Program-made: the position numbers and the translations under genes
Shown: positions 20,514 through 40,747 of the stretch, in pieces
Layout of the letters: each line of letters opens with the position of its first letter
Position numbering within the stretch: the stretch's first letter is position 1
Notes under the pieces: model-generated
Seen by the model: only the letters and a program-made list of their open reading frames with translations
Told to the model about the DNA's origin: nothing
Database searches by the model: none
Assembly: GCA_021793645.1 (NCBI GenBank)
Contig: JAJYSJ010000011.1
Location: 22,515 to 86,514, forward strand
Reading direction: 5' to 3'
DNA length: 64,000 nt
Origin: Bacillota bacterium
GTDB taxonomy: Bacteria; Bacillota; Sulfobacillia; JAJZYS01; JAJYTV01

Positions 20514-20554
20514 GAAGGCCGGTCCAAACGAATTTCACTCAGGAGGGAACCGCG

Positions 20555-22018: not shown

Positions 22019-22033
22019 ACACGTGCGCACGGA

Positions 22034-22060
22034 GGGCGGCAGGGACTGCACTGCCGCCCG
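22034..22060 (+). terminator. GC-rich hairpin downstream of gabD (no U-tract).
   Basis: gggcggcag-ggactgca-ctgccgccc starting 16 nt after the gabD stop. Confidence 0.3.
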
Positions 22061-22280
22061 TATCCTCGCGCGCCTGTAGCACAATCCGGATCAGGACCTG
22101 CGGCCGCCGCCCGAAGGCACTGGCGACGATCGGCAGGGCCGCTCTCAGCGATAAGCATAGCGTCACCCCCTGCCGCCTTCACCGAGCTCGCTGCCCTGCT
22201 GGAGGAGTACCTCGGGCCCCAGCCACAAGGGCCTGCGGTACAGGATGGGGAAATTCCCCTGTGCTAGGAGGTGCATCCGC

Positions 22281-23276
22281 TTGCGTGACACCTTTCAATC
22301 CCTCTGGGTCGACAGGGACCAAGACCAATTCCATTGCGGCTTCAAGGAGACTGCCTTCGACGACTTGTCCAAGGGCGAGCTGCTGGTGCGCGTCGCATAC
22401 TCCAGCGTGAACTACAAAGACGGCCTCGCCAGCATTCCGAGCGGCAACGTCGTGCGGCGCTACCCCTTGATCCCGGGGATCGACCTTGCGGGAACGGTCG
22501 TTTCCTCGAGTGACTCCCGGTTTTGCGAAGGAGACAGCATCCTCGCCACGGGCTATGACCTCGGCGTCTCGCACCACGGGGGCTTCGCGGAATACGCGCG
22601 GATCCCGGCCGACTGGGCCGTACCGATTCCCCCTGGCCTCGACCCGAAGCAAGCGATGTCGCTCGGCACCGCCGCTCTCACGGCCGCCCTCGCCATCCAC
22701 CGGCTGGAGGCGAACGGGCTGCGTCCAGGAAAGGGATCGGTGCTCGTCACGGGCGCGACGGGCGGCGTGGGCTCCCTTGCGGTCGCCATGCTCGCAGGCC
22801 GCGGCTACGAAGTGGAGGCGAGCACGGGCAAGGAGTCGGAGCACGGCTTCCTGCGCGCCCTTGGCGCAGCCACCGTCCTGCGGCGCGAGGATGTCTCGCC
22901 GCAGACGCTGCGCCCGCTCGATCGGCAGCGATGGGCGGCGGCGATCGACCCAGTGGGCGGACAGACGCTCGCCTACATCCTCACAAGCCTCCTCTACGGA
23001 GGATCGGTCGCCCTCGTGGGACTCACGGGCGGCGGGTCGTTCCAGGGAACCGTCTTCCCCTTCATCATCCGTGGGGGCAACCTCCTCGGCATCGACTCCG
23101 CGTACCTCGACATGGAGACGCGGCGGCTCCTCTGGGAGCAGCTTGCCGCCGAACTGAAGCCGCCGCAGCTCGGGGAGCTTGCGCAGGAGATCTCCTTCGC
23201 CGACCTGCCGGCCGCGCTCGCCCGCATCCTTGAGGGCGGTGTGCGCGGCCGCATCGTCGTCCGCGTCGCGAACTAG
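22281..23276 (+). CDS. YhdH/YhfP-family quinone oxidoreductase (acrylyl-CoA reductase AcuI-like).
   Basis: RVAYSSVNYKDGLA and LVTGATGGVGSLAV motifs. Likely TTG start after AGGAGG. The ORF-track M at 22245 is probably too far upstream. Confidence 0.8.
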   Translation: MRDTFQSLWVDRDQDQFHCGFKETAFDDLSKGELLVRVAYSSVNYKDGLASIPSGNVVRRYPLIPGIDLAGTVVSSSDSRFCEGDSILATGYDLGVSHHGGFAEYARIPADWAVPIPPGLDPKQAMSLGTAALTAALAIHRLEANGLRPGKGSVLVTGATGGVGSLAVAMLAGRGYEVEASTGKESEHGFLRALGAATVLRREDVSPQTLRPLDRQRWAAAIDPVGGQTLAYILTSLLYGGSVALVGLTGGGSFQGTVFPFIIRGGNLLGIDSAYLDMETRRLLWEQLAAELKPPQLGELAQEISFADLPAALARILEGGVRGRIVVRVAN

Positions 23277-25009: not shown

Positions 25010-26002
25010 TTAGATCTGCGCGCTCAGCCGCCGAAGGACATCGCTCGCCACGTTGCGGCCGGTGATCAGGACGGCCGTCCGCGAGCAGGCCCTGACGCGG
25101 CCGGTGAGCAGGGCGGCAACGCCGACGGCCGCCGCTCCCTCGACCACCATGCGCTCCTCGCGCAGGAGGAAGACCATCGCCTGCTCGATCTCCTGCTCCG
25201 AGACGAGCACGATGTCGTCCACGAGCGAGCGGACCATGCGCAGGGTGTGCCGATTCTCCATGCCGATGCCCCCGCGCAGGCTGTCCGCAAGGGTGGGGCT
25301 CTCCATGAAGTCCACGGGGCGCCCTGCCCGCACGCTTTCGTACATCGCCCGCGCGCCCTCGGCGCAGACGCCGATCACCCGGGTCCCCGGGGCGTTCGCC
25401 TTCACCGCGAGGGCGACGCCGGAGAGGAGCCCGCCCCCGGAGAGCGGTACGAGCACCGTATCGATCTCCGGGTCTTCCTCCATGAGTTCCAGACCAATCG
25501 TACCCTGCCCGGCGACTACATCGACGGCGTCGAAGGGAGCGACCACGAAGAGTCCATACTCGCGCTCGAGCTCCTGCGCCCGGCGCGCCGCGTCCTCCTG
25601 CGTCGGCCCGCTCAAATCGACGATGGCGCCCAGGCGGCGCAGGCCGTCGAGTTTCGTCTGCGGCACCACGTCCGGCAGGCAGACATGCGCCGGGACACCG
25701 AGTCGGCGCGCGACATACGCGACCCCCATGCCGTGGTTGCCGGTAGAGTAGGTCACCACGCCTGGCACAGGGCCCAGCTCCGCGAGGTGCAGGAGCGTGT
25801 TGGCCGCGCCGCGCATCTTGAAGGCGCCGATCGCCTGCATCTCCTCGTGCTTCAGCAGCACCGCCTCGCCGACGGCCGCGCTCAGCGCGGACGCCTCCGT
25901 CAGAGGCGTCCGCACGGCTACCCCCACGATACGCCGGTGCGCGGCCCAGACGTCCCGGATCGTCGGGGCAGTACCCAAAGGCCCTTCTCCTCGCACTGCC
26001 AC
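25010..26002 (-). CDS. Threonine/serine dehydratase-family PLP enzyme (EutB-like).
   Basis: PLP lysine motif AFKMRGA, GNHG, glycine-rich PLP-phosphate loop. 330 aa. Confidence 0.85.
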   Translation of the reverse strand: MAVRGEGPLGTAPTIRDVWAAHRRIVGVAVRTPLTEASALSAAVGEAVLLKHEEMQAIGAFKMRGAANTLLHLAELGPVPGVVTYSTGNHGMGVAYVARRLGVPAHVCLPDVVPQTKLDGLRRLGAIVDLSGPTQEDAARRAQELEREYGLFVVAPFDAVDVVAGQGTIGLELMEEDPEIDTVLVPLSGGGLLSGVALAVKANAPGTRVIGVCAEGARAMYESVRAGRPVDFMESPTLADSLRGGIGMENRHTLRMVRSLVDDIVLVSEQEIEQAMVFLLREERMVVEGAAAVGVAALLTGRVRACSRTAVLITGRNVASDVLRRLSAQI

Positions 26003-26022
26003 AGCTGCACCCCCAGCGCCCG

Positions 26023-27201
26023 TCAGGAGTCCTTAACGACGAGGCCACGATGAAAGTCGCTCAGCGCCTCGCATCCCGTCTCCGTCACCAGGACGGTCTC
26101 GCTGATCTCGAGTCCACCCGCGTCGAGCCACATGCCGGCCATCAGGTGGAAGGTCATGCCCGGGGAGAGCACGGTCCCGTCACCCTCGCGCAGGCTCGCG
26201 GTGTGCTCACCCCAATCCGGGGGGTAGCCGATGCCGACGGCGTAGCCGACACGGGACTCCTTGACGAAGCCGTGGCGTGCGATCGTCTTGCGCCAGGCCG
26301 CCTCCACATCCGCGCATGTCGCGCCCGGACGCGCCGAGCCCAGCGCCTCGTTGACGCCTTCGGCCACGGCCACGGCAAGGGCCTCGACCTGCTTCGAGGG
26401 CCGTCCGAGCGCCATGGTGCGCGATAGCGGCGCGTGGTAGCGACGGTAACATCCGGCGAGCTCGATGTTCACCGTGTCTCCCACGGTGTAGTGGCGGTCG
26501 ACCCATGTGAGGTGCGACGCGGACGTGCGCTCCCTCGAAGGCATCAGGGGGACGATCGCCGGGTAGTCGCCGGCCTTGTCGGCAAGGCCCGCGATCTGGG
26601 ACTGGAAGATCGCCGCCGCCGCGTCGCACTCCCTTGCCCCCACCGCGATCGCCTGCGCGGCTACCCCCATCGCCTGGCTGGCGATCGCGGCCGCAGTACG
26701 CATGTACGCGATCTCCTGCGGTGACTTCACGATGCGCTGCCAGTTCACGAGGAGCGTTGCGTCCTCAAAGCGCGCATCCGGAAGGTGGCGCGTAAGGTGC
26801 GCGTGGGCCCTGGCGCTGTAGTAGTAGGCGTCCATCTCGACACCGATCGTCTTGCTTGCGCGGCCATGCCGTCGCAGGAGGTCCGCCATCACGTCCATCG
26901 GGTGGACGTCCGGCTGCTGTACATAGGCCTCCGGGTAGCTCTCGAGGTGCGCATCGTCAAGCCAGGTCGTCAGCTTCGCGCCGTTCCTGTCTTGCGCCCT
27001 GCCGATCCAGACCGGCTGGTCCTCGCCCAGCACGACGATCACCGCCTGCGGGACGTAGAACGACCAGCCGTCATAGCCAGTCAGGTAGTACATGTTCGCC
27101 GGGTCGCTGACGACGAGCGCGTCGAGGCCCCTGTCCGACATCCTGCGCTGCAGCTCGGAAAGCCTCGCCTCGTACTCCGCGCGTTCAAAGGCTGTGTGCA
27201 A
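26023..27201 (-). CDS. M24-family metallopeptidase (creatinase/prolidase fold, DoeA/EutD ectoine-hydrolase-like).
   Basis: 392 aa. N-terminal creatinase-like domain and a C-terminal pita-bread domain with conserved metal-ligand pattern (D...D...H...E...E). Confidence 0.8.
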   Translation of the reverse strand: MHTAFERAEYEARLSELQRRMSDRGLDALVVSDPANMYYLTGYDGWSFYVPQAVIVVLGEDQPVWIGRAQDRNGAKLTTWLDDAHLESYPEAYVQQPDVHPMDVMADLLRRHGRASKTIGVEMDAYYYSARAHAHLTRHLPDARFEDATLLVNWQRIVKSPQEIAYMRTAAAIASQAMGVAAQAIAVGARECDAAAAIFQSQIAGLADKAGDYPAIVPLMPSRERTSASHLTWVDRHYTVGDTVNIELAGCYRRYHAPLSRTMALGRPSKQVEALAVAVAEGVNEALGSARPGATCADVEAAWRKTIARHGFVKESRVGYAVGIGYPPDWGEHTASLREGDGTVLSPGMTFHLMAGMWLDAGGLEISETVLVTETGCEALSDFHRGLVVKDS

Positions 27202-27253
27202 GGGTACTCCTCCCAGATGATCGCATCACGAGGCCCGGGACCCGGCGATTTTG

Positions 27254-27898
27254 TCAGCGATACGCGGCCGCCTTGCGCTCGAGGTGCGCGGCGATGCGCG
27301 AGAGCGTGCCGTTCATGATCAGGTAGGCGACCGCAGCGAGGGCATAGAGCGTCCCCGGCTGCTCGGTCGCGTCCGCGCCCAGCTGCGCCTGGTACATGAT
27401 GTCGGCCACTCCGATGAAGTACACGAGCGTCGTGTTCTTGAGCTGGATGATCACGAAGTTCGTCAGGGGCGGCAGCATCAGCACGAAGGCCTGCGGCATT
27501 ACCACCTTGCGCAGCGTGCTGAGAAAGCCCATCCCGACGGCGGTCGCGGCCTCGCGCTGGCCGTCCGCAACCGCCTGGATGCCTGCGCGGAACACCTCGA
27601 TGGCGTACCCCGTGCCGTAGATCACGAGCCAGATCATGGCCGCCGTGAAGGGCGGCAGGTCGATGCCGAACTGCGTCAGGCCGAAGAAGATGATGAACAG
27701 CTGCAGGATCGGAGGCAACCCGCGGATCAGCTCGACGTAGGCGAGGATCGCCGTTCGCAGCCACGGCGGACCGTAGATGCGCCCGAGCGCCCCGAAGATC
27801 CCGAGGATGAAGGAGAGCACCGTCGAGACGACCGTCAGCTCGAGGGTGACGACCGCCCCCTGCAGGATGACGCCGGCGTAGAGCCATGCGAGATGCAT
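27254..27898 (-). CDS. Polar amino acid ABC transporter permease.
   Basis: His/Glu/Gln/Arg/opine-family permease with the EAA-like loop GMGFLSTLRKVVMPQA. 214 aa. Confidence 0.85.
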   Translation of the reverse strand: MHLAWLYAGVILQGAVVTLELTVVSTVLSFILGIFGALGRIYGPPWLRTAILAYVELIRGLPPILQLFIIFFGLTQFGIDLPPFTAAMIWLVIYGTGYAIEVFRAGIQAVADGQREAATAVGMGFLSTLRKVVMPQAFVLMLPPLTNFVIIQLKNTTLVYFIGVADIMYQAQLGADATEQPGTLYALAAVAYLIMNGTLSRIAAHLERKAAAYR

Positions 27899-28713
27899 CA
27901 GCCCTCGTCACCTCCCATCGCCGTGAGGCGCGCCTCCTCGTCCGCGTTGCGGCGCAGAACCCGCGCGAGGAAGTTCTGGGCGCGCAGCGTCCGCGGCGCC
28001 TCCAGGATCTGGCGCGCCGGACCCATCTCCGCGATCGTGTTGTCGGCCATCACGACGACGGTGTCGGCCACTTCCTTCGCGAACATCATCTCGTGCGTCA
28101 CGAGAATCATGGTCATGCCCTCTTGGGCCAGCCGCTGGATCGCCTCCAGGACATCCCCGACGAGCTCCGGGTCGAGCATGGAGGTCGGCTCGTCAAACAG
28201 CATGATCTGGGGATCCATCGCCAGCGCCCGGCAGATCGCAACCCGCTGCTGCTCGCCGCCCGAGAGGCGCCGCGGGTACATGTTGGCCCGCGCGGTGAGT
28301 CCCATCATCTCGAGGAGGCCCATCGCGCGCTCGACGGCCTGGGCCCGCGGCACCTTCTTGACATCCATCGGTCCGAGCACGATGTTCTCGAGGACGCTCA
28401 GGTGCTGGAAGAGGTTGAAGGTCTGGAAGACCATCCCGACGTGCGTGCGGATCTCCCTGAGCTGCGCCCTCGTAGGCGGGGGACCTCCCGAAGCCGTGCC
28501 GTGCAGTTCGTGGCCGAGCACCGTGATGGAACCCTCGTCGAACGGGTGCAGGTAGTTGATGCAGCGGATGAACGTGCTCTTCCCGACGCCGCTCGGCCCG
28601 ATGATGGCGACGACTTCGCTCTTGCGGACTTGAAGCGAGACGTCCTTGAAGATCACCCGATCGCCGAAGTGCTTGCTCAGGCCGCGTACGTCAACCGCGA
28701 CGTCGTTGGACAT
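27898..28713 (-). CDS. Polar amino acid ABC transporter ATP-binding protein.
   Basis: Walker A GPSGVGKST, signature LSGGEQQRVAI, Walker B MLFDEPTS. 271 aa. Confidence 0.9.
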   Translation of the reverse strand: MSNDVAVDVRGLSKHFGDRVIFKDVSLQVRKSEVVAIIGPSGVGKSTFIRCINYLHPFDEGSITVLGHELHGTASGGPPPTRAQLREIRTHVGMVFQTFNLFQHLSVLENIVLGPMDVKKVPRAQAVERAMGLLEMMGLTARANMYPRRLSGGEQQRVAICRALAMDPQIMLFDEPTSMLDPELVGDVLEAIQRLAQEGMTMILVTHEMMFAKEVADTVVVMADNTIAEMGPARQILEAPRTLRAQNFLARVLRRNADEEARLTAMGGDEG

Positions 28714-29347
28714 TGGTCTCCCACCTCGTCAAAAATTGAGAGAGAACCAGGTAGAAGACGAAGTACATGATCCCTGCCAGCAGGAACATGTCCATGGGGT
28801 GGAAGTTGGCGGCGGACGCCTGGTAGGCCTGGAACATCAGGTCCGCGACGCCGATCGTCACGACGAGCGACGTGTCCTTGATCAGGTCCGCGAGCTCGTT
28901 CGTCGCAGGCGGCAGGATCGCGAGGAAGGCCTGCGGCAGCACGATGCGGCGCATGATCGCCTGGCTCCCCATTCCGAGCGCCTCCGCCGCCTCCCGCTGG
29001 CCGTACTGGACGCCCTCGATACCGCCGCGGAAGATCTCGCCGTAGAGCGTGGCGTAGTACACCCCGAGCGTGATCACAGCCGCCGTGAAGCCCGACATCT
29101 GGATCCCGATCTGGCCCAGGGAGTAGTACGCCACGAACAGCAGGACGAGCACCGGGATGGCCCGGACTACCTCGATGTAGATTGTCGCGACCAAGCTCAG
29201 CAGGCGTAGCCTCGATAGGCGCATCAGGGCCAGTACGAAGCCGAAGGCGACCGCCAGGAGGAGCGCGAGCGCCGTCAGCTCCAGTGTCATCTCAACCCCT
29301 TGCCAGAACGCCGGCAGGTTCTGCGCCCAAAGATGCAGGAAGCTCAC
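28691..29347 (-). CDS. Polar amino acid ABC transporter permease (second subunit).
   Basis: Paralogous to the 27254..27898 permease. EAA-like loop GMGSQAIMRRIVLPQA. 218 aa. Confidence 0.85.
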   Translation of the reverse strand: MSFLHLWAQNLPAFWQGVEMTLELTALALLLAVAFGFVLALMRLSRLRLLSLVATIYIEVVRAIPVLVLLFVAYYSLGQIGIQMSGFTAAVITLGVYYATLYGEIFRGGIEGVQYGQREAAEALGMGSQAIMRRIVLPQAFLAILPPATNELADLIKDTSLVVTIGVADLMFQAYQASAANFHPMDMFLLAGIMYFVFYLVLSQFLTRWETNVQRRRG

Positions 29348-29421
29348 TATGCCACCACCTCATCCTGGGTCCGGGCGGGAGGACCCGGCTCCTGCCGGCT
29401 CCCCGCCGAAGGACCCGCCGC

Positions 29422-30294
29422 TTACGACCCGCCGCTGTAGGTGTTCGGGGCTGAGCAGATACCCGCGAGGAACACCTTGCTCGTCATCCCGTACTTGTTT
29501 AGGATCTGCTGCTCTGTGCCGTTGCAGGCGATCGTCTTCAGGTAGGCGTTGAGCTTCTGCAGGAAGCGCGCGCTGTACTTGCCCTTCGGCACGCCGTAGT
29601 AGCCCCTGAGGCTCGCGAGCGGCGGCGAGATCGATGCAGGCACTGCCCCGAGGATCTTGATGTTCAGGGATGGATTGCTGTGCTTGGCCCACGGGACATC
29701 GACACCCGGCTCGAAGTCGGCGTCGACCCTGCCGCTCGAGAGCGCGAGGAAGGATTCACCGACGGAGTTGTACTGGGTGATCTGCGCGTTCGGAACAGCA
29801 TTGGCCTCCGCAACCTCGGCGGAGCCGATGACGACGGCGATCTTCTTGCCCGTGAGGTCGGCGACCGAGGTGCCGGAGACCGTCGGGTGCGTGCTGTTCA
29901 CCGCGACGACGTCGTTGTAGTTGAGCATGGGTCGGCTGAAGCCGATCACCTTGGCGCGGTCCGCGTTCCAGTAGATGTCGATCGTCAGGGCCGCGCGCTT
30001 GTCCGCGACCGCCTGGATCGACGCCGCGAACGGCATGGATGTGATCGACAGCGTTGCGCCGAGGGACTTCGCGAAGCCGCGCAGGATGTCGACGTCGTAG
30101 CCGGTCCACTGCTTGGTGGTCGGGTCCTGGAAGTCCTCGGGCGCGAACGCCGACTCCGCGATCGTCAGTTTATGCGTGCTCTGCACCTGGGCCAGGAGAT
30201 CGTTCGGACCGCTGCTGGCCGCTGTCGTCGAGCCGCAGCCCGCTAGCAGCGCGCTGATCCCCAGTGCAGTGAGCGCCGGTGCAGCCCATCTCAT
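29422..30294 (-). CDS. Polar amino acid/compatible-solute ABC substrate-binding lipoprotein (EhuB-like).
   Basis: ATG at 30292..30294. Signal peptide with lipobox LLAGCGS, followed by a family-3 SBP fold. The ORF-track upstream extension is rejected. Confidence 0.8.
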   Translation of the reverse strand: MRWAAPALTALGISALLAGCGSTTAASSGPNDLLAQVQSTHKLTIAESAFAPEDFQDPTTKQWTGYDVDILRGFAKSLGATLSITSMPFAASIQAVADKRAALTIDIYWNADRAKVIGFSRPMLNYNDVVAVNSTHPTVSGTSVADLTGKKIAVVIGSAEVAEANAVPNAQITQYNSVGESFLALSSGRVDADFEPGVDVPWAKHSNPSLNIKILGAVPASISPPLASLRGYYGVPKGKYSARFLQKLNAYLKTIACNGTEQQILNKYGMTSKVFLAGICSAPNTYSGGS

Positions 30295-30380
30295 TCTCAA
30301 GTGACTTTCCCTCCCCCACGTCCCGGCTTGCCGGCCCTGCGCCTTCGTGAGGCGGGGCGCACGGATCGGCCGCCCGGCAA

Positions 30381-31820
30381 TCAAGCCAGATTGAGACAAA
30401 CCACCTTGGTCTCGGTCATCGCCTCGGCTGCGTAGCGGATGCCCTCTCGCCCGAGGCCGCTCCCCTTCACGCCCCCGAAGGGCATGGCGTCGACTCGGAA
30501 ATCGCTGCTGTCGTTGATCATCACCCCCCCCATCTCGAGGCCCTGCACGCAACGGAAGGCGAGGTCGATGTCCCTGGTGAAGACGCCGGCCTGCAGGCCG
30601 TATGGGGAGTCGTTCGCCTTGCGCACCGCCTCCTCCGGATCCCGCACCCGGTAGAGGGAGACGACAGGCCCGTAAATCTCCTCGCGATCCAGGCTGCAGC
30701 CCTGTGGGACGTCTCGAAGCACCGTCGGGTCGTAAAACGCCCCCTGACGGCGCCCGCCCGCGAGCAGGCGCGCGCCGAGGGAGACCGCCTCGCTTACCCG
30801 ACCCTCAACCCGCATGGCCTCGCGCCCCGAGATCATCGGCCCCATGTCCGTCTCCTCCGACCGCTTGTCCCCGACCTTGATGTCCCGCACCCGTGCGAGG
30901 AAGCGTTCGGTGAACTCGTCCGCGACCTCGTCCTCGAGGATGACGCGCTGCACCCCAAGACAGTTCTGGCCCGCGTTGCCGAAGGCGCCGCTGAGGATCG
31001 CCTCCACCGCGCGCTCGAGATCCGCGTCGCGCAGGACGATCGTCGGAGAGTTGGAGCCGAGCTCCATCGCGAGCTTCTTGATTCCGGCCCTGCGGGTGAT
31101 CGACAGCCCGGTCTCCAGTCCGCCGGTGAAGGAGATCATCGCGACGTCGGGGTGCGTCACGAGCCGGTCCCCGAGCACGCTGCCGCTTCCGGTGACGAGC
31201 GACACCACCTGCGGCGGCAGCCCCGCTTCGAGGAGGGTCTCCACCAGCAGGAGCGCGCCCAGGGGCGCGACGCTCGAGGGTTTGAGGACGACGGCGTTGC
31301 CCGTCGCGATCGCCGGCCCGAGCTTGTGCGCCACGAGGTTCAAGGGATCGTTGAACGGGGTGATCGCCCCGATGATGCCGAGCGGGAACCGATCGTAGTA
31401 GCCGATCCGCCGCTCGGCACCCGGGCGCTGGTCGAAGGGAATCGTCTCGCCGTGGCCGCGCGAGGCCTCCTCCGCGCTCAGTTGCAATGTGTCCGCGGCG
31501 CGCCGCAGCTCGGCGCGGGCCTCCCGGATCGTCTTGCTGCAGTCCCGGCTGAGGATCCCGGCGTACTGCTCCGCCCGCTCCGCGACGAGCTGGGCCGTAC
31601 GCTGGAGGATGGCCTTGCGCTGGTGCACCGGCAGCGCCCGCGCCACTTGCGCCCCCTGCTTCGCGCCCTCGATCGCGGCGTCCATCTGTGCGACGCTTGC
31701 CGCGGGCAGGCGGGTGAGGATGGAGCCGTCCTGTGGGTCCGTGACCTCGAAGGTCTCGTCGCTCAGGGTCCACTCGCCGCCGATCAGGAGCTTTCTCTCC
31801 GACGTGAAGATGTCGATCAC
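30381..31820 (-). CDS. NAD(P)-dependent aldehyde dehydrogenase.
   Basis: ELGSNSP and FGNAGQNC motifs. 479 aa. Confidence 0.9.
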   Translation of the reverse strand: MIDIFTSERKLLIGGEWTLSDETFEVTDPQDGSILTRLPAASVAQMDAAIEGAKQGAQVARALPVHQRKAILQRTAQLVAERAEQYAGILSRDCSKTIREARAELRRAADTLQLSAEEASRGHGETIPFDQRPGAERRIGYYDRFPLGIIGAITPFNDPLNLVAHKLGPAIATGNAVVLKPSSVAPLGALLLVETLLEAGLPPQVVSLVTGSGSVLGDRLVTHPDVAMISFTGGLETGLSITRRAGIKKLAMELGSNSPTIVLRDADLERAVEAILSGAFGNAGQNCLGVQRVILEDEVADEFTERFLARVRDIKVGDKRSEETDMGPMISGREAMRVEGRVSEAVSLGARLLAGGRRQGAFYDPTVLRDVPQGCSLDREEIYGPVVSLYRVRDPEEAVRKANDSPYGLQAGVFTRDIDLAFRCVQGLEMGGVMINDSSDFRVDAMPFGGVKGSGLGREGIRYAAEAMTETKVVCLNLA

Positions 31821-32872
31821 GCGGGTCGCCTCCCAACCGAGGTAGTGCTGCGTCCGATACGGATCAGGTCATGGAGGAGCGCGAACGCCGTCTCGCGCCG
31901 GCCGGCGCCAGCGCCGATCAGTGTGACGGGCCCGAGGAGGTCGCAGGTGTATGTGATCGCGTTCGTCGCGCCGCGCACGCTCCCCAGCGGGTCGTCCGCG
32001 GGCAGGAGCACCGGCCCGACGGAGGCCCTAAGGCCTGCCTCTGTGCGCTCGAGCTGCGCAATCAGCTTCCAGTGGCGCCCCTCCCGAGCGGCGGCGGCCA
32101 CCTCCGCGCGCGTCAGCTGCGAGATGCCCTCCCGCGCGACGTCCTGCGGCGCGACCTGCTCTCCGAGAACGTGCGCCGCCAGGATCACGACCTTGTAGAG
32201 GGCGTCGAAGCCCTCGACGTCGCCCGCCGGGTCCGCTTCGGCGTAACCGAGCCCCTGCGCCTCCCGGAGCGCGTCTTCGTACTCGAGGCCCTCTTCCATA
32301 CGGGTCAGGATGTAGTTCGTGGTGCCGTTCAGGATGCCGCGGACCGCAAGGATGCGATTGCCGGCGAGCGCCGCGCGGCCAAGGTCCAAGGACGGCGTGC
32401 CGCTCATCACCGTGCCCTCGATGCCGAACTCCACCCCGGCTTCTTGCGCCTTCGCGAAGAGCTCCCGGTAGCGCAGGACGACCGGGCCCTTGTTCGAGGT
32501 GATCACGTGAAGGCCGTGGGCGAAGGCCGCCTCGCAGTGCTCGATGGCCGGCTGCCCGTCCGCCAGCGTCGGCGAGAGCTCCAGGATCACGTCGGCGGAG
32601 CTCTCCCGGATCGTAGTGAGGCTGTCGAGGCCGCGCACGAGGCCGGGCTGCTCGGGATAGCCCGCAAGCAGTGCGGCGCCCTGCGCTGCGGCAACCAGCA
32701 CGGCGGGCTCGAGACCCTCGTCCCGGAAGAGCGAGCCCTTCACAGGGTCCGCGACGGCGACGATCGTGAGGTCGAGCCCGAAGCGGCGCGCAATCTCTTC
32801 CTGCCGCTCGCCGACGATCTCCGCGAAGGCTTGTCCGACGCCGCCGAATCCGATCAGTGCGAGCTTAGGCAT
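31817..32872 (-). CDS. Homoserine dehydrogenase-family protein (short form, no ACT domain).
   Basis: ATG at 32870..32872. N-terminal LALIGFGGVGQAF NAD-binding motif and a Hom-like catalytic domain. About 351 aa. Confidence 0.75.
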   Translation of the reverse strand: MPKLALIGFGGVGQAFAEIVGERQEEIARRFGLDLTIVAVADPVKGSLFRDEGLEPAVLVAAAQGAALLAGYPEQPGLVRGLDSLTTIRESSADVILELSPTLADGQPAIEHCEAAFAHGLHVITSNKGPVVLRYRELFAKAQEAGVEFGIEGTVMSGTPSLDLGRAALAGNRILAVRGILNGTTNYILTRMEEGLEYEDALREAQGLGYAEADPAGDVEGFDALYKVVILAAHVLGEQVAPQDVAREGISQLTRAEVAAAAREGRHWKLIAQLERTEAGLRASVGPVLLPADDPLGSVRGATNAITYTCDLLGPVTLIGAGAGRRETAFALLHDLIRIGRSTTSVGRRPA

Positions 32873-34109
32873 GACTGACGGCACCTCCCCTTGGGCCGGA
32901 TGGCAGTGGAAACTCCCCGGTGAGCACCTGGCGCGCAGATTCTGCGAGCAGCGCCGCGCCGATCGGCAGACAGCGCTCGTCCAGGTCGAATTCGGGCGTA
33001 TGGAGTCCCGCAGGGGGCCTCCCCTCCGGGCGGCAGCCCAGGAACGCCATCGCTGCCGGAACGGCCTCCGCGATGAAGGCGAAGTCCTCGCCGCCGAGGC
33101 CGAAAGGCGCAAGGTGGATGCGGGTCTCCTTTGGAAGGGCGGAGAGCGCCTGGACATACAGCCGGTTCACGTCGGGGGCGTTCCTGAGCGCAGGACTCTC
33201 GTGGATGAAGCGCAGGCGGTAGTCGCCCCCAAGGCTGCGCACCAGCGAGAAGGCCCGCTCCACCTCGGTCTCGAGGAGCGCGCGGATGCGTGGGTCGTAG
33301 GCGCGCATGGTCCCCTCGAGCGTCACCTCGGCCGGAATGACGTTGGGCGCCGTGCCGCCAGCAACCCTGCCGACGGTGACGACAGCGGTCTCGAGCGGCG
33401 ACACCCGCCGGGAGACAATGCCGTGCAGCGCCGTCAAGACCGGCGCAAGCAGCCAGATCGGGTCGACCGCCAGGTCAGGGTAGGCGCCGTGGCCGCCCCG
33501 CCCCACGATCACGCCCTCGAAGGTGTCGACGCTCGCCATGGCGTAGCCGTCCGCCAGCTGCACGACCCCCGTCGGCTCGTAGGGGTTTACGTGCAGCGCG
33601 AGCGCGAGGCTCACGCCCTCGAGTACCCCTTCCTCCAACATGCGGGCAGCCCCGGTGCGGCCCTGGGCGTCCGCCGCCTCCTCGGCCGGCTGGAAGATGA
33701 GGCGCACCCCGCCCGCGAGACTCCCCTCCGCGAACAGCTGCGTCAAGATGTCCGCTGCGCCCAGCAGCATCGCCATGTGTCCGTCGTGGCCACAGGCGTG
33801 CATCCTGCCCGGATGCTGGGAAGGGAACGCAACGCCGCTCCGCTCCTCGATCGGCAGGGCGTCCATGTCGGCTCGCAGGGCCACCAGCGGACCCGCGCCG
33901 CGACGGAGGTCCGCGACCACCCCGGTGCCGCCCACGCCGCGGCGGAGTTGGAAGGCTCCCAGGCGCTCCAGCTGCGCCGCGATGAAGTCCGAGGTCTCAT
34001 GCTCCTCGAATGCGACCTCGGGCCGGGCGTGGAGGTGGCGGCGCCACGCCCGCATCTCCTCCTGCAGTCCCTGCGCCGCGCTGTGCACGGCGGACTTCGG
34101 ACCCGTCAT
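32865..34109 (-). CDS. M20D-family amidohydrolase (N-acyl-amino acid / hippurate hydrolase-like).
   Basis: ATG at 34107..34109. HACGHDGH metal-binding motif. About 414 aa. Overlaps the downstream start by 8 nt. Confidence 0.85.
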   Translation of the reverse strand: MTGPKSAVHSAAQGLQEEMRAWRRHLHARPEVAFEEHETSDFIAAQLERLGAFQLRRGVGGTGVVADLRRGAGPLVALRADMDALPIEERSGVAFPSQHPGRMHACGHDGHMAMLLGAADILTQLFAEGSLAGGVRLIFQPAEEAADAQGRTGAARMLEEGVLEGVSLALALHVNPYEPTGVVQLADGYAMASVDTFEGVIVGRGGHGAYPDLAVDPIWLLAPVLTALHGIVSRRVSPLETAVVTVGRVAGGTAPNVIPAEVTLEGTMRAYDPRIRALLETEVERAFSLVRSLGGDYRLRFIHESPALRNAPDVNRLYVQALSALPKETRIHLAPFGLGGEDFAFIAEAVPAAMAFLGCRPEGRPPAGLHTPEFDLDERCLPIGAALLAESARQVLTGEFPLPSGPRGGAVSHA

Positions 34110-34123
34110 CTCGAGCCCTCCTC

Positions 34124-35356
34124 TCAGCGCGAGGCCACGCTCTTGCCGCTGCGCCTGACTTCCGCGGCGCCGCGTAGCGCCTGGTCGAGGTCTGCGATCA
34201 GGTCTTCGGTCTCCTCGATGCCCACGGAGTAGCGCACAAGGCTCTCGGGGATGCCGAGCGAGGCCCGGCCCTCTTCGGTGAGCTCCACGTGGCTCGTCGT
34301 GCGGGGCGGCCCGGCGACCGTCTCGACGCACCCGAGGTTCGCGGCGAGGTGCGCGAATCGGAGCTTCGGCAGAAAGGCCCGCACTGCGTCGAAGCCGCCC
34401 CTCAGAGAAAAGGACATCACTCCGCCGAAGCCGCGCATCTGCCGCGCCGCGACATCGTGGTGCGGGTGGCTCTCGAGCCCGGGGTAGAATACCTCGTCGA
34501 TCTCGGGGTGGGCCTCAAGGAACCGCGCGATGCGCAGGGCGCTCTGGTTCTGCTGCTTGACGCGCAGAGAGAGCGTCTTCAGGCCCCGCAGGATGAGGTA
34601 GGCCGCTTCGGGGTGCAGCGTCGCGCCGTTGATCTCGCGGAAGTGGTAGACCTCCGCCACGAGGTCCTTGCGTCCGCAGAGGAGGCCGCCCAGCGCATCG
34701 GCGTGGCCGCCGAGGAACTTCGTCGCACTGTGGACCACGAGGTCTGCACCCATGCTGAGCGGGCTCTGGTTCACCGGAGTGGCGAACGTGTTGTCGACGA
34801 TCGCGAGAGCCCCATGGCGGTGCGCGCAAGAGATGAGGCGCGGCAGGTCCAGAACCTTGAGGGTCGGGTTCGTGGGCGTCTCGAGGTAGAGGATCTTGCA
34901 GCCCTTCGCGACCTCCCGCTCGATGGCGTCGAAGTCGCCCGTGTCGCAGAGGGCCACGTCGATCTGGAAGCGCGGCAGGAATTCGAGGAAGATCTTGCTC
35001 GTCCCGCCGTAGGTGTCCTTGATCGACACGACGCGGTCGCCGGGCGAGAGCAGCGTAAAGAGGGTGCTGCTGATGGCGGCCATGCCGGTCGAGAAGCTCG
35101 TTGCGGCCTCGGCTCCCTCCAAAAGGCGCAGCTTCTCCTCCAGCACCTGGACGGTCGGGTTCGTGTTGCGCCCGTAGATATGGCCGGCCCGCTGCCCGAG
35201 CGCCACCTCGTACCACTCGTCGAGGTCGCGGTAGCCGAAGGACACGCTGTGCACGACGGGAACCTGGGTCGCTCCCTGCATGAGGTACTGTTCCTCGCCT
35301 GCCCAGACCGCCATCGTTCCCTGGTGCGCCGTAGGAAGGTCCCGCTCGTCAGCCAT
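34124..35356 (-). CDS. Cys/Met-metabolism PLP-dependent enzyme (cystathionine gamma-synthase/lyase family).
   Basis: PLP lysine motif SATKFLGGH. 410 aa. Confidence 0.85.
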   Translation of the reverse strand: MADERDLPTAHQGTMAVWAGEEQYLMQGATQVPVVHSVSFGYRDLDEWYEVALGQRAGHIYGRNTNPTVQVLEEKLRLLEGAEAATSFSTGMAAISSTLFTLLSPGDRVVSIKDTYGGTSKIFLEFLPRFQIDVALCDTGDFDAIEREVAKGCKILYLETPTNPTLKVLDLPRLISCAHRHGALAIVDNTFATPVNQSPLSMGADLVVHSATKFLGGHADALGGLLCGRKDLVAEVYHFREINGATLHPEAAYLILRGLKTLSLRVKQQNQSALRIARFLEAHPEIDEVFYPGLESHPHHDVAARQMRGFGGVMSFSLRGGFDAVRAFLPKLRFAHLAANLGCVETVAGPPRTTSHVELTEEGRASLGIPESLVRYSVGIEETEDLIADLDQALRGAAEVRRSGKSVASR

Positions 35357-35404
35357 GGATCTGCCTCCAAAAACCGATTCGGATCGTACTGATGATTAAG
35401 AGTC

Positions 35405-36394
35405 CTAGATCTGTGTCCCGGCCCCCGCCTGCAGGGCCAGACTGTACGCGAGCCGCGCGATCGCCGTGTCCTGCACTCCGGTGCCGGTGAGGTCGCAGAC
35501 CGTGACCTGCGCCGGGTCCGTTCGCCCTGGCCGCTGGCCCGCTGCGATCGTGCCCAGTTCGACGATGCGGCCTGGGGCGAGGAGACCCGCGTCTACCGCG
35601 TGGTGGCATTCCCCGAGCCGCAGGCTTTGTTCTAGGACGTCGCAGGCGACGAGGTCGGCCTCATGGAGCACAGAAGGTTCGAGTTCGCGCTTGCGCGGCG
35701 CGTCGGACCCGATGGCCGTGATATGCAGCCCCGGGTGGAGCCAGACGGCCTGGATGAGGGGTTCTTGGGAGGGCGTCGCAGTGACCAGGATGTCGCTCTC
35801 CCGGACAAGTCGCTCGAGGTCCGTAAGGACAGCAGCGGGCACGCCGAGCGTTTTCGTGATCTCTCCGGCGCAGGTCCGCGCACCCTCTGCGCTGCGGCTG
35901 AAGATGAGGACCCGCTCGAACGGGCGCACGAGGTGGAGCGCCAGCGCCTGGTAGAGGGCCTGTTCGCCGGCGCCGACAAGCCCGAGCGTTAGCGCATCTT
36001 TGCGCGCGAGGTGCTTCGCTGCCACGGCGCCGGCTGCGGCCGTCCGCAGCGTCGTGAGATGCCCTCCGTCGAGGAGGACTGCCTTTGGAACTCCTGTTCG
36101 GGAGTCGAACAACACCATGAGGCCGTTGCCGGTGGGGAGCCCCTGCGCCCGATTGCCGAAAAACCCCGAGGAGATCTTCACGGCGAAGCTGTCCCAGCCG
36201 CGCACGTACGCCGTCTTGACGTCGACCTCGCCCTGGTGCTCCGGCACGTCGAGGCGCTGAATCGGCGGCGTTTCGACGGCTCCCGCCGCGATCCGCCGAA
36301 ATCCCTCCTCCACCGCCTCCACAACCTCGTGCGACAGCGGCACGAGGCGGCGGATCTCGTCTGCCGACACCGCGAGGACTGCGATCGCGATCAC
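35405..36394 (-). CDS. Ornithine cyclodeaminase / mu-crystallin-family protein (EutC-like).
   Basis: OCD-family Rossmann motif LGLVGAGEQA. Probable GTG start at 36392..36394 after GGAAAG. The long upstream ORF extension is rejected. Confidence 0.75.
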   Translation of the reverse strand: MIAIAVLAVSADEIRRLVPLSHEVVEAVEEGFRRIAAGAVETPPIQRLDVPEHQGEVDVKTAYVRGWDSFAVKISSGFFGNRAQGLPTGNGLMVLFDSRTGVPKAVLLDGGHLTTLRTAAAGAVAAKHLARKDALTLGLVGAGEQALYQALALHLVRPFERVLIFSRSAEGARTCAGEITKTLGVPAAVLTDLERLVRESDILVTATPSQEPLIQAVWLHPGLHITAIGSDAPRKRELEPSVLHEADLVACDVLEQSLRLGECHHAVDAGLLAPGRIVELGTIAAGQRPGRTDPAQVTVCDLTGTGVQDTAIARLAYSLALQAGAGTQI

Positions 36395-36649
36395 CCGCTT
36401 TCCACCGGCAGTCCGGATGTGCCCGACCAGTTGGGCGGAGAAGCCGGATCTGCGCGATCTGGTATTTAGGGTGGCGCATCGCGGTCGCGTGCCACAACCG
36501 CAAGATTGTATGAAAATGAGTGGCCGGCTTCGGTTATCCTGTCGGATGTTCACCCGCGCACAAGCCACTTTGCGCGAGAGATGGCGCACCGCAGCAACCG
36601 CTGGCACCCGGCGGAGTGCAAAGGGAGAACGCCCTCGCGACGGAGGCGT

Positions 36650-36835
36650 TCTCCTTTTCCGTGTGGGCGAGCCCACCTCAGATGCGGGCGTGGAGATTGG
36701 CAGTGCGAATCGTGCGCCCGCCGCGTGCACGGGGAGGTGAACGGCTCCCGGCGGTGATCAGGTGGTTATCCAGGTTGCCGCCGTGATCGCCCGTTGGCCG
36801 TTCACGACCTCGCCCTCACCCGGTTCCAGCCCGAT
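36650..36835 (-). pseudogene. Fragment of an acetamidase/formamidase-family gene.
   Basis: About 85% nucleotide identity over roughly 190 bp to 42705..42846 inside the intact formamidase gene. On the minus strand it encodes GVIGLEPGEGEVVNGQ... Confidence 0.55.
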
Positions 36836-37062: not shown

Positions 37063-38004
37063 GTGAAGCACTCCGAGAAGCGCTCGCCAGTACCCCCAAT
37101 CCGTCACGCGACCGAGGCGGGCGACGCCGCAATGCCGCTGACGCTTCGCAGGCTGACCGAGCAGTACGGTCGACTCAGCGCCTCCCACCGGCGCCTCGCC
37201 GCGGCAGTGCTCGGCAAGCCCCTGGAAGCGGCCTTCTGGAGCAGTGCGGAACTCGCTGCAAATGCGGGCGTCAGCGAGTCGACCGTGACGCGGTTCACGG
37301 TCGCGCTCGGCTACTCCGGCTACCCCGCGTTCGTGCGCGAGCTGCAGGCGATCGCACGCAGCCGCCTGCGCACCGGCGAGCGCCTCTCCCGAAGCCGGCA
37401 GGCGGGTGTGGACGAGTACGGCCGCGCGCTGCAGGAAGATGTCCAGAACCTCGAGCTCTTGGCCACGCAGGTGTCCTCCGATGCGCTCGAACAGGCAGCG
37501 ACGCTGATCACGGGTGCGCGGACGGTGGCTCTGGTGGCCGCGCGCAGCTCCGCGGCGATCGGGGTCTACCTCGAGACGTACCTCAACATGCTCGGCAAGC
37601 CCGTCCGCATGTTCCGCGGCGATCCCGGCACGATCGATCTCCTTGGCCGCATGGGGCCCGAGGATGTCGCCATCGGGGTCGGGTTCAGCCGCTACACGTC
37701 GTTCACGGTCAAGGCCGTCCGCTACCTGTACGGCCGCGGTGTGCCCGTCCTCGCGATCACGGACCATCTCGCCTCGCCGCTCGCGCTGTCCGCGAACCTC
37801 GTCCTCCTCACGCCGACCCAGGCGGCCTCGCCCGTCGACTCCCTGGTCGCGCCGCTGGCGATGGCGCAAGCGCTGATCCGTCTCCTGATGAACCGCCTCC
37901 CCGCCGACAGTGTCGGCGAGCTCCTGGCGATGGAGGAACTCTGGGCATCGTTCGGCGTCTACGAAAGGATGTGGGGCGAGGACACGGAGGAGCGCGGCGA
38001 GTAG
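37063..38004 (+). CDS. RpiR/MurR-family transcriptional regulator (HTH_6 + SIS).
   Basis: N-terminal HTH (LTEQYGRLSASHRRLAAAVL) and a C-terminal SIS domain. Divergent from the catabolic operon. Confidence 0.85.
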   Translation: MKHSEKRSPVPPIRHATEAGDAAMPLTLRRLTEQYGRLSASHRRLAAAVLGKPLEAAFWSSAELAANAGVSESTVTRFTVALGYSGYPAFVRELQAIARSRLRTGERLSRSRQAGVDEYGRALQEDVQNLELLATQVSSDALEQAATLITGARTVALVAARSSAAIGVYLETYLNMLGKPVRMFRGDPGTIDLLGRMGPEDVAIGVGFSRYTSFTVKAVRYLYGRGVPVLAITDHLASPLALSANLVLLTPTQAASPVDSLVAPLAMAQALIRLLMNRLPADSVGELLAMEELWASFGVYERMWGEDTEERGE

Positions 38005-38073: not shown

Positions 38074-39210
38074 GTGCGTTTCGCACGATCACATCGGTTC
38101 AATATGGTCTATATGGGGGCGATCGCGATGGCGGGACGCAAACGGGCGCGCGATTACGGTTTGGCCACGTGGCGGCTGTCCAGCGGGCCGCTGGGTGCGA
38201 TCACCGACGTGCCTGGCGTACGGGTAGGACATTCCACCGTGATCCGCGGTGAGCGCATGCGCACCGGCGCCACCGCGATCTTCGCGCACGACGGCGACCC
38301 CTTCCACGAGCGCGTCTTCGCAGGAGTCGATGTGCTGAACGGGGACACGGTGAACACGGGGCAGGCAATCATCGACGAGTGGGGTCTCCTATGCTCTCCG
38401 GTCGTCTTCGCCAGCACGCGGTCACTAGGCGTCGCCTACGAGGCCGTAGTGCAACATTTCATCTCCCGCTACCCCGAGGCCAGCGCCGACGGAAACCTCA
38501 TTCCCGTCGTGATGGAATGCGACGACAACTACCTGAGCGACAACCGCTCCTTCCCCCTGCAGGTGGAAGACGTGCTGGCGTGCCTTCAGTCGGCGCAGGG
38601 CGGCCCGGTGGAGGAGGGCGGCGTGGGCGCAGGCACCGGCATGCAGCTCTTCGGTTGGAAGGGCGGCATCGGGACAGCATCCCGCGTCGTCACGGCCTAC
38701 GGCCAGACCTACACCATTGGCGTCATCCTCAACACGAACTTCGGGCAGCGCCAGCAGCTCCTCCTGCGCGGGTTCCCGATCGGGGAACACCTTGCGGACC
38801 CTCTCGCCGGGCGCTCACCGGAGGGCTCCTGCGTCGGCGTCCTGGCGACCGACGCCCCGCTCGGCCCAAGCCAGCTCCGCCGCATGGCGAAGCGCGTCGG
38901 CTTCGGGCTCGTGCGCTGCGGTTCCGTCGGCAACGACGGCAGCGGCGAGGCCTTCATCGCGTTCTCCACCGCCCACCGCGTGCGCCGGGACCACTCTTCG
39001 CCGGTAACGGTGCAGCGCCTCATCGAAGGCCAGTTCTGGCAGCGCGGGTCGCCGATCGACCTCCTCTTTGAGGCCGCGACGGAAGCCTCGGAGGAGGCCT
39101 GCCTCAACGCCCTCGTGGCCGGCACGACGACCACCGGCCGCGACGGGCACGCGCTGCACGGGTTTCCCGTCGAGGAAGCCCTCGGGGTTCTGCGGCAGAA
39201 CGCGCTGTAG
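38074..39210 (+). CDS. DmpA/S58-family (P1) aminopeptidase/amidase.
   Basis: GTGMQLFGWKGGIGTASR motif typical of DmpA-type Ntn hydrolases. The real start is probably an internal M near 38100. Confidence 0.75.
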   Translation: MRFARSHRFNMVYMGAIAMAGRKRARDYGLATWRLSSGPLGAITDVPGVRVGHSTVIRGERMRTGATAIFAHDGDPFHERVFAGVDVLNGDTVNTGQAIIDEWGLLCSPVVFASTRSLGVAYEAVVQHFISRYPEASADGNLIPVVMECDDNYLSDNRSFPLQVEDVLACLQSAQGGPVEEGGVGAGTGMQLFGWKGGIGTASRVVTAYGQTYTIGVILNTNFGQRQQLLLRGFPIGEHLADPLAGRSPEGSCVGVLATDAPLGPSQLRRMAKRVGFGLVRCGSVGNDGSGEAFIAFSTAHRVRRDHSSPVTVQRLIEGQFWQRGSPIDLLFEAATEASEEACLNALVAGTTTTGRDGHALHGFPVEEALGVLRQNAL

Positions 39211-39277
39211 GAGAGGGGGTGACGATGGAGGGAAGGCTGCGGATCCGCCACATCCCGCATCAAGAAGGAGGATTGCA

Positions 39278-40690: not shown

Positions 40691-40747
40691 ACGCAAGTAC
40701 AGGATGGGCCCTGCCCCCGGCAGGGCCCCCAATGCGAGGGTAAAGCG

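Follow-up and report, generated by a model that had tools for sequence, protein, structure and literature searches.

The window analysed here, a stretch of 64,000 nucleotides from a Bacillota bacterium (contig JAJYSJ010000011.1, positions 22,515 to 86,514), contains an operon of 11 minus-strand genes, running from position 36394 down to 25010, that probably encodes an ectoine-type catabolic system, as suggested by homology and by gene context across genomes. We propose, with a probability of about 0.55, that the operon imports ectoine, together with hydroxyectoine, and degrades it to aspartate through an architecture of Gram-positive type, in which a CGS-like enzyme and a homoserine dehydrogenase (Hom) replace the transaminase. 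That the degradation branch passes through homoserine is plausible at somewhat under even odds. Substrates and reactions, the step through the CGS-like enzyme above all, are proposed from the family assignments, the synteny and the co-localisation with bona fide ectoine genes that we observed in other genomes.

Our own list of open reading frames (ORFs) and the public gene calls agree on the 11 genes. The tightly spaced or overlapping run described by the original prediction was recovered at identical coordinates (25010-36394) with gaps of at most about 80 bp, and Pfam returned the protein families that had been named for its genes. In transcription order the intergenic distances are 48, 14, -8, -4, ~80, 74, -23, -1, 52 and 44 bp, in a window whose G+C content is about 68%. 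A consensus scan gave no terminator-like site on the coding strand inside the operon (3 sites found against 4 expected by chance). A terminator-like hairpin with a T-run lies 3' of the last gene (24844-24828, minus strand), in a scan whose sites were not above the number found in shuffled sequence. No Rfam match was obtained within or upstream of the operon.

The M24 creatinase-fold hydrolase of 392 aa (26023..27201, minus strand; Pfam PF01321 Creatinase_N and PF00557 Peptidase_M24) has the DoeA/EutD model TIGR02993 as its best NCBIfam match, with 472 bits, short of the cut-off of 613; among unrelated families PepQ came next, with 96. Among solved structures, the H. elongata DoeA (PDB 6TWK) matched with 394.7 bits and 48% identity, against 94 bits for prolidase and 60 for creatinase, scores that rule out a prolidase or creatinase identity. 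The similarity to DoeA spans the full length with short indels only, and the protein is 50% identical to the DoeA of the Klebsiella plasmids considered below. From its sequence, it is a putative ectoine/hydroxyectoine ring hydrolase.

The first gene of the operon (35405..36394, minus strand) encodes a 329-aa NAD(P)H enzyme of the ornithine cyclodeaminase (OCD)/mu-crystallin family (Pfam PF02423), which resembles EutC. It passes the NCBIfam 'cyclodeaminase' model NF006141 (424 bits, cut-off 408), also the name given by NCBI to the orthologue on a plasmid of Priestia megaterium; the EutC model TIGR02992 gave 379 bits, below 471.65, and true OCD 128 bits. Its nearest PDB entries (179-154 bits) are an archaeal alanine dehydrogenase, a Pyr2C reductase (169 bits) and the iminosuccinate reductase BhcD (6RQA, 154 bits), and ornithine and lysine cyclodeaminase structures reached only 89-96 bits (true OCD 89). 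A true ornithine or lysine cyclodeaminase is ruled out by these NCBIfam and PDB scores. The protein is 40% identical to the EutC of the Klebsiella plasmids and, judged by its relatives, may act as an imine reductase. The last gene (25010..25978, minus strand, alternative start 26002) encodes a pyridoxal phosphate (PLP) enzyme of 322 aa with the threonine-dehydratase fold (Pfam PF00291 PALP). This protein scored 381 and 359 bits with the EutB models (TIGR02991 / NF005680), both below the cut-off of about 413, is 44% identical to the protein in the eutB position of the Klebsiella cluster, and would be the dehydratase of a 3-hydroxy intermediate. Since M24 falls in with DoeA and the OCD-like protein with EutC, the first result that the original prediction had named as speaking against it, a grouping with prolidases, creatinases and true ornithine cyclodeaminases, did not occur.

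The M20D amidohydrolase of 414 aa (32865..34109, minus strand; Pfam PF01546 and PF07687, M20 and M20_dimer) passes NCBIfam TIGR01891 (345 bits, cut-off 154), and its nearest PDB entries are the N-acyl-amino-acid hydrolases ILL2, YxeP and N-acyl-Gln aminoacylase. A deacetylase of the DoeB/EutE type (TIGR02994) is absent from the 11 products, and tblastn with the Klebsiella DoeB found none in the window locus (L001). The M20D enzyme is thus a candidate N-alpha-acetyl-2,4-diaminobutyrate deacetylase in place of DoeB/EutE, as had been proposed earlier; the existence of an M20D 'DoeB2' model gives this substitution a precedent, and the score of the protein with that model (242 bits) lies below the cut-off of 550. 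Literature searches on 'DoeB2' returned nothing, and on an M20-type deacetylase no relevant paper.

The second gene (34124..35356, minus strand) encodes a 410-aa PLP enzyme of the cystathionine-gamma-synthase (CGS)/MGL family (Pfam PF01053 Cys_Met_Meta_PP, 433 bits), which passes the NCBIfam PRK08249 model NF006097 (698 bits, cut-off 600). Its best PDB match is a methionine gamma-lyase (MGL), with 332 bits. The PLP lysine K213 and the residues Y116, R375, Y61 and R63 are invariant across the PRK08249 subfamily; we take these Tyr and Arg residues to be the counterparts of the alpha,gamma-chemistry residues of the P. putida MGL. Gly stands at the position of the characteristic Cys of MGLs. The protein is conserved unusually well, with 63-85% identity across phyla, and we suggest that it acts on 2,4-diaminobutyrate (DABA) by gamma-elimination or gamma-replacement. 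None of the 11 operon genes encodes an Aminotran_3 protein, the Pfam family of the DoeD/Atf-type class-III aminotransferases. Because a class-III aminotransferase gene occurs within 10 kb of an ectoine-type block only in one other locus (L015) and in the window, where it is gabT in a separate convergent operon, the CGS-like gene appears to fill the slot of the DABA transaminase.

The fourth and fifth genes, which overlap by 4 bp, encode a short Hom of 351 aa without ACT domain (31817..32872, minus strand; Pfam PF00742 and PF03447, Homoserine_dh and NAD_binding_3) and an aldehyde dehydrogenase (ALDH) of 479 aa (30381..31820, minus strand; Pfam PF00171 Aldedh, 519 bits). Hom passes NCBIfam NF004912 (404 bits, cut-off 373) and retains the Asp after the second strand (VAVAD); ALDH passes no NCBIfam equivalog cut-off. 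Hom is 44% identical to RlHSD (WP_011654697.1, pRL80071) of plasmid pRL8 of Rhizobium johnstonii 3841, and ALDH is 48% identical to the ALDH whose gene overlaps that of RlHSD. RlHSD has been assigned to a short, ACT-less, NAD-specific Hom family that favours homoserine oxidation (AnHSD family; bioRxiv 10.1101/2021.02.09.430557) and, according to a passage of PMC10228743 citing Vanderlinde 2014, lies near a homoserine-catabolism cluster. The operon thereby contains the short catabolic-type Hom with adjacent ALDH that is a feature of the homoserine/canavanine module. Hom would work in the catabolic direction, from homoserine to aspartate semialdehyde, and ALDH would convert aspartate semialdehyde to aspartate, the role of DoeC/Ssd.

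The importer genes lie in the order binding protein, permease, ATPase, permease. They encode a lipoprotein substrate-binding protein (SBP) of 290-292 aa (29422..30300; Pfam PF00497 SBP_bac_3, with the lipobox LLAGCGS read from the sequence), permease 1 of 218 aa (28691..29347; Pfam BPD_transp_1), the ATPase of 271 aa (27898..28713; Pfam ABC_tran) and permease 2 of 214 aa (27254..27898; BPD_transp_1), all on the minus strand. Permease 1 scored 158 bits with the cystine permease model and 157 with EhuC (cut-off 197), permease 2 152 bits with EhuC and 144 with cystine permease; on the EhuC/EhuD models together the two permeases gave 157/146 and 152/118 bits, short of the cut-offs of 197/205. The ATPase scored 290 bits with TcyN and 272 with EhuA, below the cut-off of 345. 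The cystine-transporter models thus score the permeases and the ATPase as well as the Ehu models do. With the EhuB model TIGR02995 (cut-off 190.9) the SBP reached 32 bits; its identity to a bona fide EhuB is 23% (E = 0.045), and EhuB was absent from the PDB sequence matches of the SBP (E <= 1e-3) and from the top 50 fold matches. Orthology with EhuB is ruled out by these results, and the second result that the original prediction had named as speaking against it largely occurred, in that no EhuB-type binding protein was found. The earlier description of the importer as a four-component EhuABCD layout thus holds for the polar-amino-acid ABC family, and fails for the gene order and for the binding protein.

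In an AlphaFold2 model of the SBP (pLDDT 86), the predicted fold has binding proteins for Gln, Arg and cystine as neighbours. In a multiple alignment, Arg113, Tyr108 and Phe89 of the SBP align with Arg85 and with the aromatic residues at positions 80 and 60 of EhuB, and the N-terminal EEPF motif is not conserved. The SBP belongs to a narrow family of about 100 homologues, from Thermaerobacter, Alicyclobacillus, Sulfobacillus and Ferrimicrobium, whose genes are part of the cluster in the window as well as in L041, L050, L002, L003 and L090.

The CGS-like protein served as query to collect 80 genome loci, whose gene context was compared in a synteny matrix. A Bacillota metagenome-assembled genome (MAG; L041) shares all 11 genes and their order, L050 has them permuted, and they are present again in the cultured Alicyclobacillus sp. 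SO9, whose genome is complete (CP066339.1, L090); the grouping is therefore not a matter of chance. The putative Bacillota-type ectoine block was confirmed in the Bacillales loci L073, L079 and L080, on the 74.8-kb plasmid of P. megaterium ATCC 14581 (L086) and in strain SO9. The order annotated by NCBI on the P. megaterium plasmid is PucR, EutB, PdxS, M24, cyclodeaminase, CGS-family, M20, homoserine dehydrogenase, ALDH and ProP. The look at the context in relatives that had been suggested for this operon therefore revealed a block recurring across genera and phyla.

The CGS-like gene lies within the cluster in every Bacillota locus sampled. Of about 27 cluster loci, 17-19, from Bacillota, Trueperaceae and Chloroflexota, have the CGS-Hom(-ALDH) genes in an unbroken row, with M20D sitting between them in Bacillota. 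Transporters beside the orthologous blocks include an EhuB above the cut-off of 190.9 in Marinithermofilum abyssi (301 bits), a Trueperaceae MAG (294 bits) and a Sulfomarinibacteraceae MAG (281 bits), and ProP-like, BCCT or TRAP osmolyte transporters in other blocks. In Trueperaceae and Chloroflexota, the CGS-like gene stands with EhuB-, DoeB- and DoeA-type genes, Hom and ALDH; the M24 protein there is of the NCBIfam 'DoeA_2' type and is accompanied by a DoeB-type deacetylase (342-356 bits), M20D being absent. On Klebsiella IncFIB plasmids, the CGS-like gene lies directly 3' of doeA-doeB, both named by NCBI equivalog models, with an EnuR-like regulator gene alongside and ehuBCDA, eutB-like and eutC genes opposite. 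No doeC or doeD gene was present within 12 kb of this plasmid cluster.

In a gene tree, the association of the CGS-like gene with the cluster is a feature of whole lineages and holds for every member of the Bacillota and of the Trueperaceae that was sampled. A separate clade of cluster-associated genes was ruled out, the tree following taxonomy and not context. A CGS-Hom fusion ORF that appeared in L018 and L030 was discarded as an artefact of crude ORF calling on high-GC DNA.

Several variants of the locus were also recorded. The closest MAGs, L002 (10001-12438, 16077-20582) and L003, have two tandem DoeA-like M24 paralogues and no OCD-like gene, and carry after the transporter an arginase-family gene, a Glu/Leu/Phe/Val-type dehydrogenase, an SDR and an acyl-CoA dehydrogenase. 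In Zhaonella formicivorans (L004, CP085524.1, 34-40 kb), a DoeA-like M24 (56% identical) stands with TRAP DctQM/DctP, an M20 amidohydrolase and an SHMT-family gene; CGS, Hom, ALDH and EutBC are missing from this smaller M24 plus M20 architecture. The Klebsiella cluster is found in K. pneumoniae plasmid NZ_CP031815.1 (L087, 6.8-18.3 kb) and in about 28 similar plasmids of clinical, animal-associated and environmental origin; a literature search on Klebsiella ectoine plasmids found no relevant paper. Lone PRK08249 genes, about 70% identical, occur in Acidobacteriota, Gemmatimonadota, Anaerolineae, Bacteroidota and Verrucomicrobiota (e.g. L017, L019, L020, L025, L033 and L062).

In the proposed pathway, the lipoprotein-dependent ABC importer would take up the solute and the DoeA-like M24 enzyme would open the tetrahydropyrimidine ring to give N-alpha-acetyl-(3-hydroxy-)2,4-diaminobutyrate, from which the M20D amidohydrolase, standing in for DoeB/EutE, would strip the acetyl group. 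In the hydroxylated branch, the EutB-like PLP dehydratase would dehydrate 3-hydroxy-DABA and the EutC-like enzyme would reduce the resulting 2-imine to DABA, in the way that BhcB/BhcD act on beta-hydroxyaspartate. The activities of EutABC have been called unknown (PMC8739950), and in H. elongata eutB and eutC are dispensable for ectoine itself (PMC3187862). The CGS/MGL-family enzyme, replacing DoeD/Atf, would then eliminate the gamma-amino group of DABA and, with water, yield homoserine and ammonium, by analogy with canavanine gamma-lyase acting on canavanine. The short ACT-less Hom would oxidise homoserine to aspartate semialdehyde, which ALDH would oxidise to aspartate. We offer only tentatively, at odds nearer to doubt than to belief, the more specific proposal that the PRK08249 enzyme is an L-2,4-diaminobutyrate gamma-lyase forming homoserine and ammonium and so defines a transaminase-independent ectoine branch, with the SBP of the window as a novel kind of binder for ectoine or for a solute derived from it. 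If this reading is true, the branch from DABA through homoserine and aspartate semialdehyde to aspartate would span Bacillota, Trueperaceae and Chloroflexota and be truncated on the Klebsiella plasmids.

With the canonical doe/eut systems the operon has in common the DoeA/EutD-like M24, EutB-like and EutC-like proteins, an ALDH, a binding-protein-dependent importer in the same operon and the presumed end product aspartate. In contrast to them, it has M20D and not a DoeB/EutE-type deacetylase, a CGS/MGL-family enzyme with Hom and not a class-III DABA transaminase, and RpiR as regulator, without EutA, EnuR or AsnC; its SBP is neither EhuB nor UehA, and all the common proteins lie below the equivalog cut-offs. 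The operon is therefore outside canonical doe/eut in the strict sense. The match with the published eut/doe sets given by the original prediction stands in so far as the M24, PALP and OCD-like proteins are nearest to DoeA, EutB and EutC; it does not extend to equivalog scores, nor to DoeB/EutE, DoeD/Atf, EutA, EnuR and EhuB, which are absent from the operon. The same prediction had placed M20D, Hom and the CGS-like enzyme outside the canonical set, and rightly so, M20D presumably replacing DoeB/EutE and the CGS-like enzyme with Hom presumably replacing the class-III transaminase.

A cluster of this type was described in 2026 by comparative genomics (PMC13188858; Boas Lichty et al., AEM 2026), as putative Bacillota clusters pucR-eutBCD-atf plus abgB-thrA-adh with variable transporters and neither eutE nor EnuR. 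The window operon is a further member of that type with a different regulator and transporter. All seven genes eutB, eutC, eutD, 'atf' (CGS-like), abgB (M20D), thrA (Hom) and adh (ALDH) are in the window operon, and the Bacillales core order M24-OCD-CGS-M20D-Hom-ALDH with a lineage-specific transporter attached is shared; by this synteny, the gene labelled 'atf' in PMC13188858 is the CGS-family gene. The window differs in having RpiR and not PucR, a single M24, the M24 and eutB-like genes after the transporter, and an ABC system of a narrow family (Thermaerobacter, Alicyclobacillus, Sulfobacillus) in place of MFS, BCCT, Ueh or Ehu transporters. PMC13188858 treats 'atf' as an aminotransferase and gives thrA no explanation. 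What the present analysis adds is that 'atf' can be read as a member of the gamma-lyase family, that it is repeatedly paired with Hom-ALDH of catabolic type, and that it stands after doeAB on the Klebsiella plasmids.

The logic of a CGS-family lyase followed by Hom and ALDH, with a clustered ABC importer, is also that of the canavanine gamma-lyase pathway of Pseudomonas canavaninivorans and Rhizobiales. That pathway has been rebuilt with purified enzymes: the CGS-family gamma-lyase gives homoserine, an NAD-dependent Hom gives aspartate semialdehyde and an ALDH gives aspartate (PMC9533460). The two are likened by pathway logic and not by orthology of the lyases: the leaving group is hydroxyguanidine there and would be ammonia here, and the window has no Gdx exporter (no SMR/Gdx-type gene among the 11) and no aspartase. 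The homoserine region of pRL8 likewise has a short Hom without ACT domain, whose gene overlaps the ALDH gene that follows it by 4 bp (44%/48% identity), and differs in the Hom motif (GFGGVN, against GFGGVG in the window), in the surrounding genes, and in that homoserine is imported there and presumably generated within the pathway here. The pairing of a PALP dehydratase with an OCD/mu-crystallin-family imine reductase is found as well in BhcB/BhcD of the beta-hydroxyaspartate cycle. The window proteins scored 223 bits with NCBIfam BhcB (cut-off 550) and 210 bits with BhcD (cut-off 500), so far below the cut-offs that the substrate must differ and the analogy is mechanistic only.

Several observations weigh against the proposed ectoine pathway. 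The M24, EutB-like and EutC-like proteins are each below their NCBI equivalog cut-offs, the SBP is not EhuB-like, and its orthologue in Alicyclobacillus ferrooxydans belongs to a stand-alone four-gene transporter operon. EutA, EnuR and PucR are all absent from the operon. In some 50 of the 80 loci, chiefly from Acidobacteriota and including most of the Anaerolineae, a CGS-like gene about 70% identical has no ectoine genes nearby, so that the substrate of the subfamily may be a commoner metabolite; no conserved neighbour of the gene was found in these loci, which therefore offer no functional clue. The Klebsiella cluster lacks Hom and ALDH, and 2-oxobutyrate as product fits it equally well as homoserine. 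We know of no biochemical precedent for a gamma-elimination of the amino group from DABA. The window Hom has GFGGVG, not the GxGxxN of the oxidation-only homoserine dehydrogenase family (bioRxiv 10.1101/2021.02.09.430557). Lastly, the Gram-positive clusters have been described by bioinformatics only and were called provisional by the authors of PMC13188858.

Two other explanations were weighed. With the same substrate, the CGS-like enzyme could be a DABA transaminase or carry out a full alpha,gamma-elimination to 2-oxobutyrate and two ammonium ions, leaving Hom and ALDH a side role or the balance of the aspartate semialdehyde/homoserine pool. The doeA-doeB-CGS-like arrangement of Klebsiella, where Hom and ALDH are missing, would fit such chemistry, as would the nearest solved relatives of the enzyme, methionine gamma-lyases with 2-oxobutyrate as end product, and the label atf in PMC13188858. 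The gene is nevertheless PF01053/PRK08249 and not a class-III aminotransferase, the Hom-ALDH pair resembles the homoserine-catabolic pair, and the contiguous, often overlapping CGS-Hom-ALDH genes in 17-19 loci of three phyla are hard to explain if no homoserine is formed; we consider this explanation rather unlikely. A different substrate, one giving a gamma-substituted 2-aminobutyrate or homoserine, with M24 acting on it as an amidino- or amidohydrolase, is unlikely as well. Candidates would be homoserine or DABA derivatives with a substituent on O or N, other cyclic amidines or guanidines, and N-acyl amino acids. The sub-cut-off scores of all the Eut/Doe-like proteins, the SBP unrelated to EhuB and nearest to Gln/Arg/cystine binders, the second M24 paralogue and arginase-family gene of relatives L002 and L003, and the canavanine logic of the CGS, Hom and ALDH trio (PMC9533460) are consistent with it. 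It is opposed by the orthologous blocks, which adjoin true EhuB, ProP, BCCT and TRAP transporters and DoeB-type deacetylases, by the CGS-like gene directly 3' of bona fide doeA-doeB in Klebsiella, and by the 48-50% identity of M24 to characterised or equivalog DoeA over the full length; moreover, Pfam detected no guanidine exporter or urea-handling gene among the operon genes.

The remaining explanations are poorly supported. Hom and the CGS-like enzyme would be ordinary Thr/Met biosynthesis genes beside an amino-acid transporter and peptidases, with no single pathway, if one were guided by the occurrence of the CGS-like subfamily alone in many Acidobacteriota and Anaerolineae and by the generic homoserine dehydrogenase model that Hom passes. 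The 11 genes, however, follow one another closely or overlap, the block recurs in different genera and phyla and on the P. megaterium plasmid, Hom has no ACT regulatory domain, and the CGS-like gene is inside the cluster in all Bacillota loci sampled, which makes this explanation highly improbable. Even less probable is a hydroxyproline/pipecolate-type cyclic amino acid route with an OCD-like reductase, the alternative that the original prediction had mentioned. The 169 bits of the OCD-like protein with the Pyr2C reductase structure point towards it, whereas the LhpI and Pyr2C/Pip2C reductase models gave 75-174 bits against 379-424 for the EutC and PRK08291 models, and no epimerase, D-amino-acid dehydrogenase or deaminase of such a route is among the 11 genes. 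An opine route was ruled out, its other enzymes being absent and nopaline-binding proteins giving only about 24 bits with the SBP. Degradation of an ectoine to aspartate thus remains our preferred reading of the operon.

Ectoines are abundant nitrogen-rich osmolytes, and to our knowledge experimental proof of their turnover is limited to a few Proteobacteria. If the reading is correct, ectoine consumption would reach thermophilic or acidophilic Bacillota, Deinococcota and Chloroflexota, and there would be an explanation for the deacetylase and the transaminase that seem to be 'missing' from the Gram-positive clusters. The CGS family would gain a gamma-lyase activity, in a route that frees ammonium directly and without 2-oxoglutarate, by a subfamily, PRK08249, that also lies beside doeAB on clinical Klebsiella plasmids. 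The hypothesis is specific and testable, and cultured strains exist. Should ectoine not be the substrate, the operon would still be a well-conserved catabolic island with another substrate to find.

The divergent RpiR gene reported upstream of the operon was found at 37063..38004 (plus strand); it encodes an RpiR/MurR-family regulator (Pfam HTH_6 and SIS) with weak NCBIfam matches to HexR and MurR, and is by its position a candidate regulator of the operon. At the window locus, neither Pfam nor tblastn with the Klebsiella EnuR-like protein found an EnuR (MocR/GabR) regulator, and tblastn found no PucR, which is present in 15 related loci. A scan of the 11 operon products and of the immediate flanks gave no member of the EutA racemase-like family. 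The spacer between the operon and the RpiR gene measures 668 bp and contains, about 230 nt upstream of the first gene, a hairpin with a 14-bp stem, 93% complementary (36620-36658). The T-run of the hairpin is on the plus strand, so that it is no obvious terminator for either neighbouring gene.

On the other side of the operon and convergent to it, positions 19167-23276 (plus strand) hold gabT, whose product passes TIGR00700, a gabD-like succinate-semialdehyde dehydrogenase gene and a gene of the YhdH/acrylyl-CoA-reductase family. These look like a separate GABA-type unit and were not counted with the operon. gabT is the class-III aminotransferase gene nearest to the operon, about 4.5 kb away on the opposite strand, and its product could in principle also accept DABA. 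Beyond the RpiR gene, the region 38074-44656 encodes on the plus strand an S58/DmpA-family aminopeptidase, an APC amino-acid permease and a HemL-like class-III aminotransferase, and on the minus strand an acetamidase/formamidase-family protein and a second APC permease. Archaeal EutD homologues are adjoined by aminopeptidase and aminotransferase genes (PMC13188858). Farther away, a full-length match to the c-di-GMP-I-GGC riboswitch variant RF03167 lies at 55107-55194 (plus strand; 79.6 bits, Rfam gathering score 59). A segment at about 12000-18000, which may have been acquired horizontally, has a G+C content of 0.53-0.56 against 0.62-0.71 in the rest of the window, and its genes encode an amidase-like protein (11443-12882) and, at 13129-17754, an ABC transporter of the branched-chain-amino-acid type whose binding protein is a lipoprotein.

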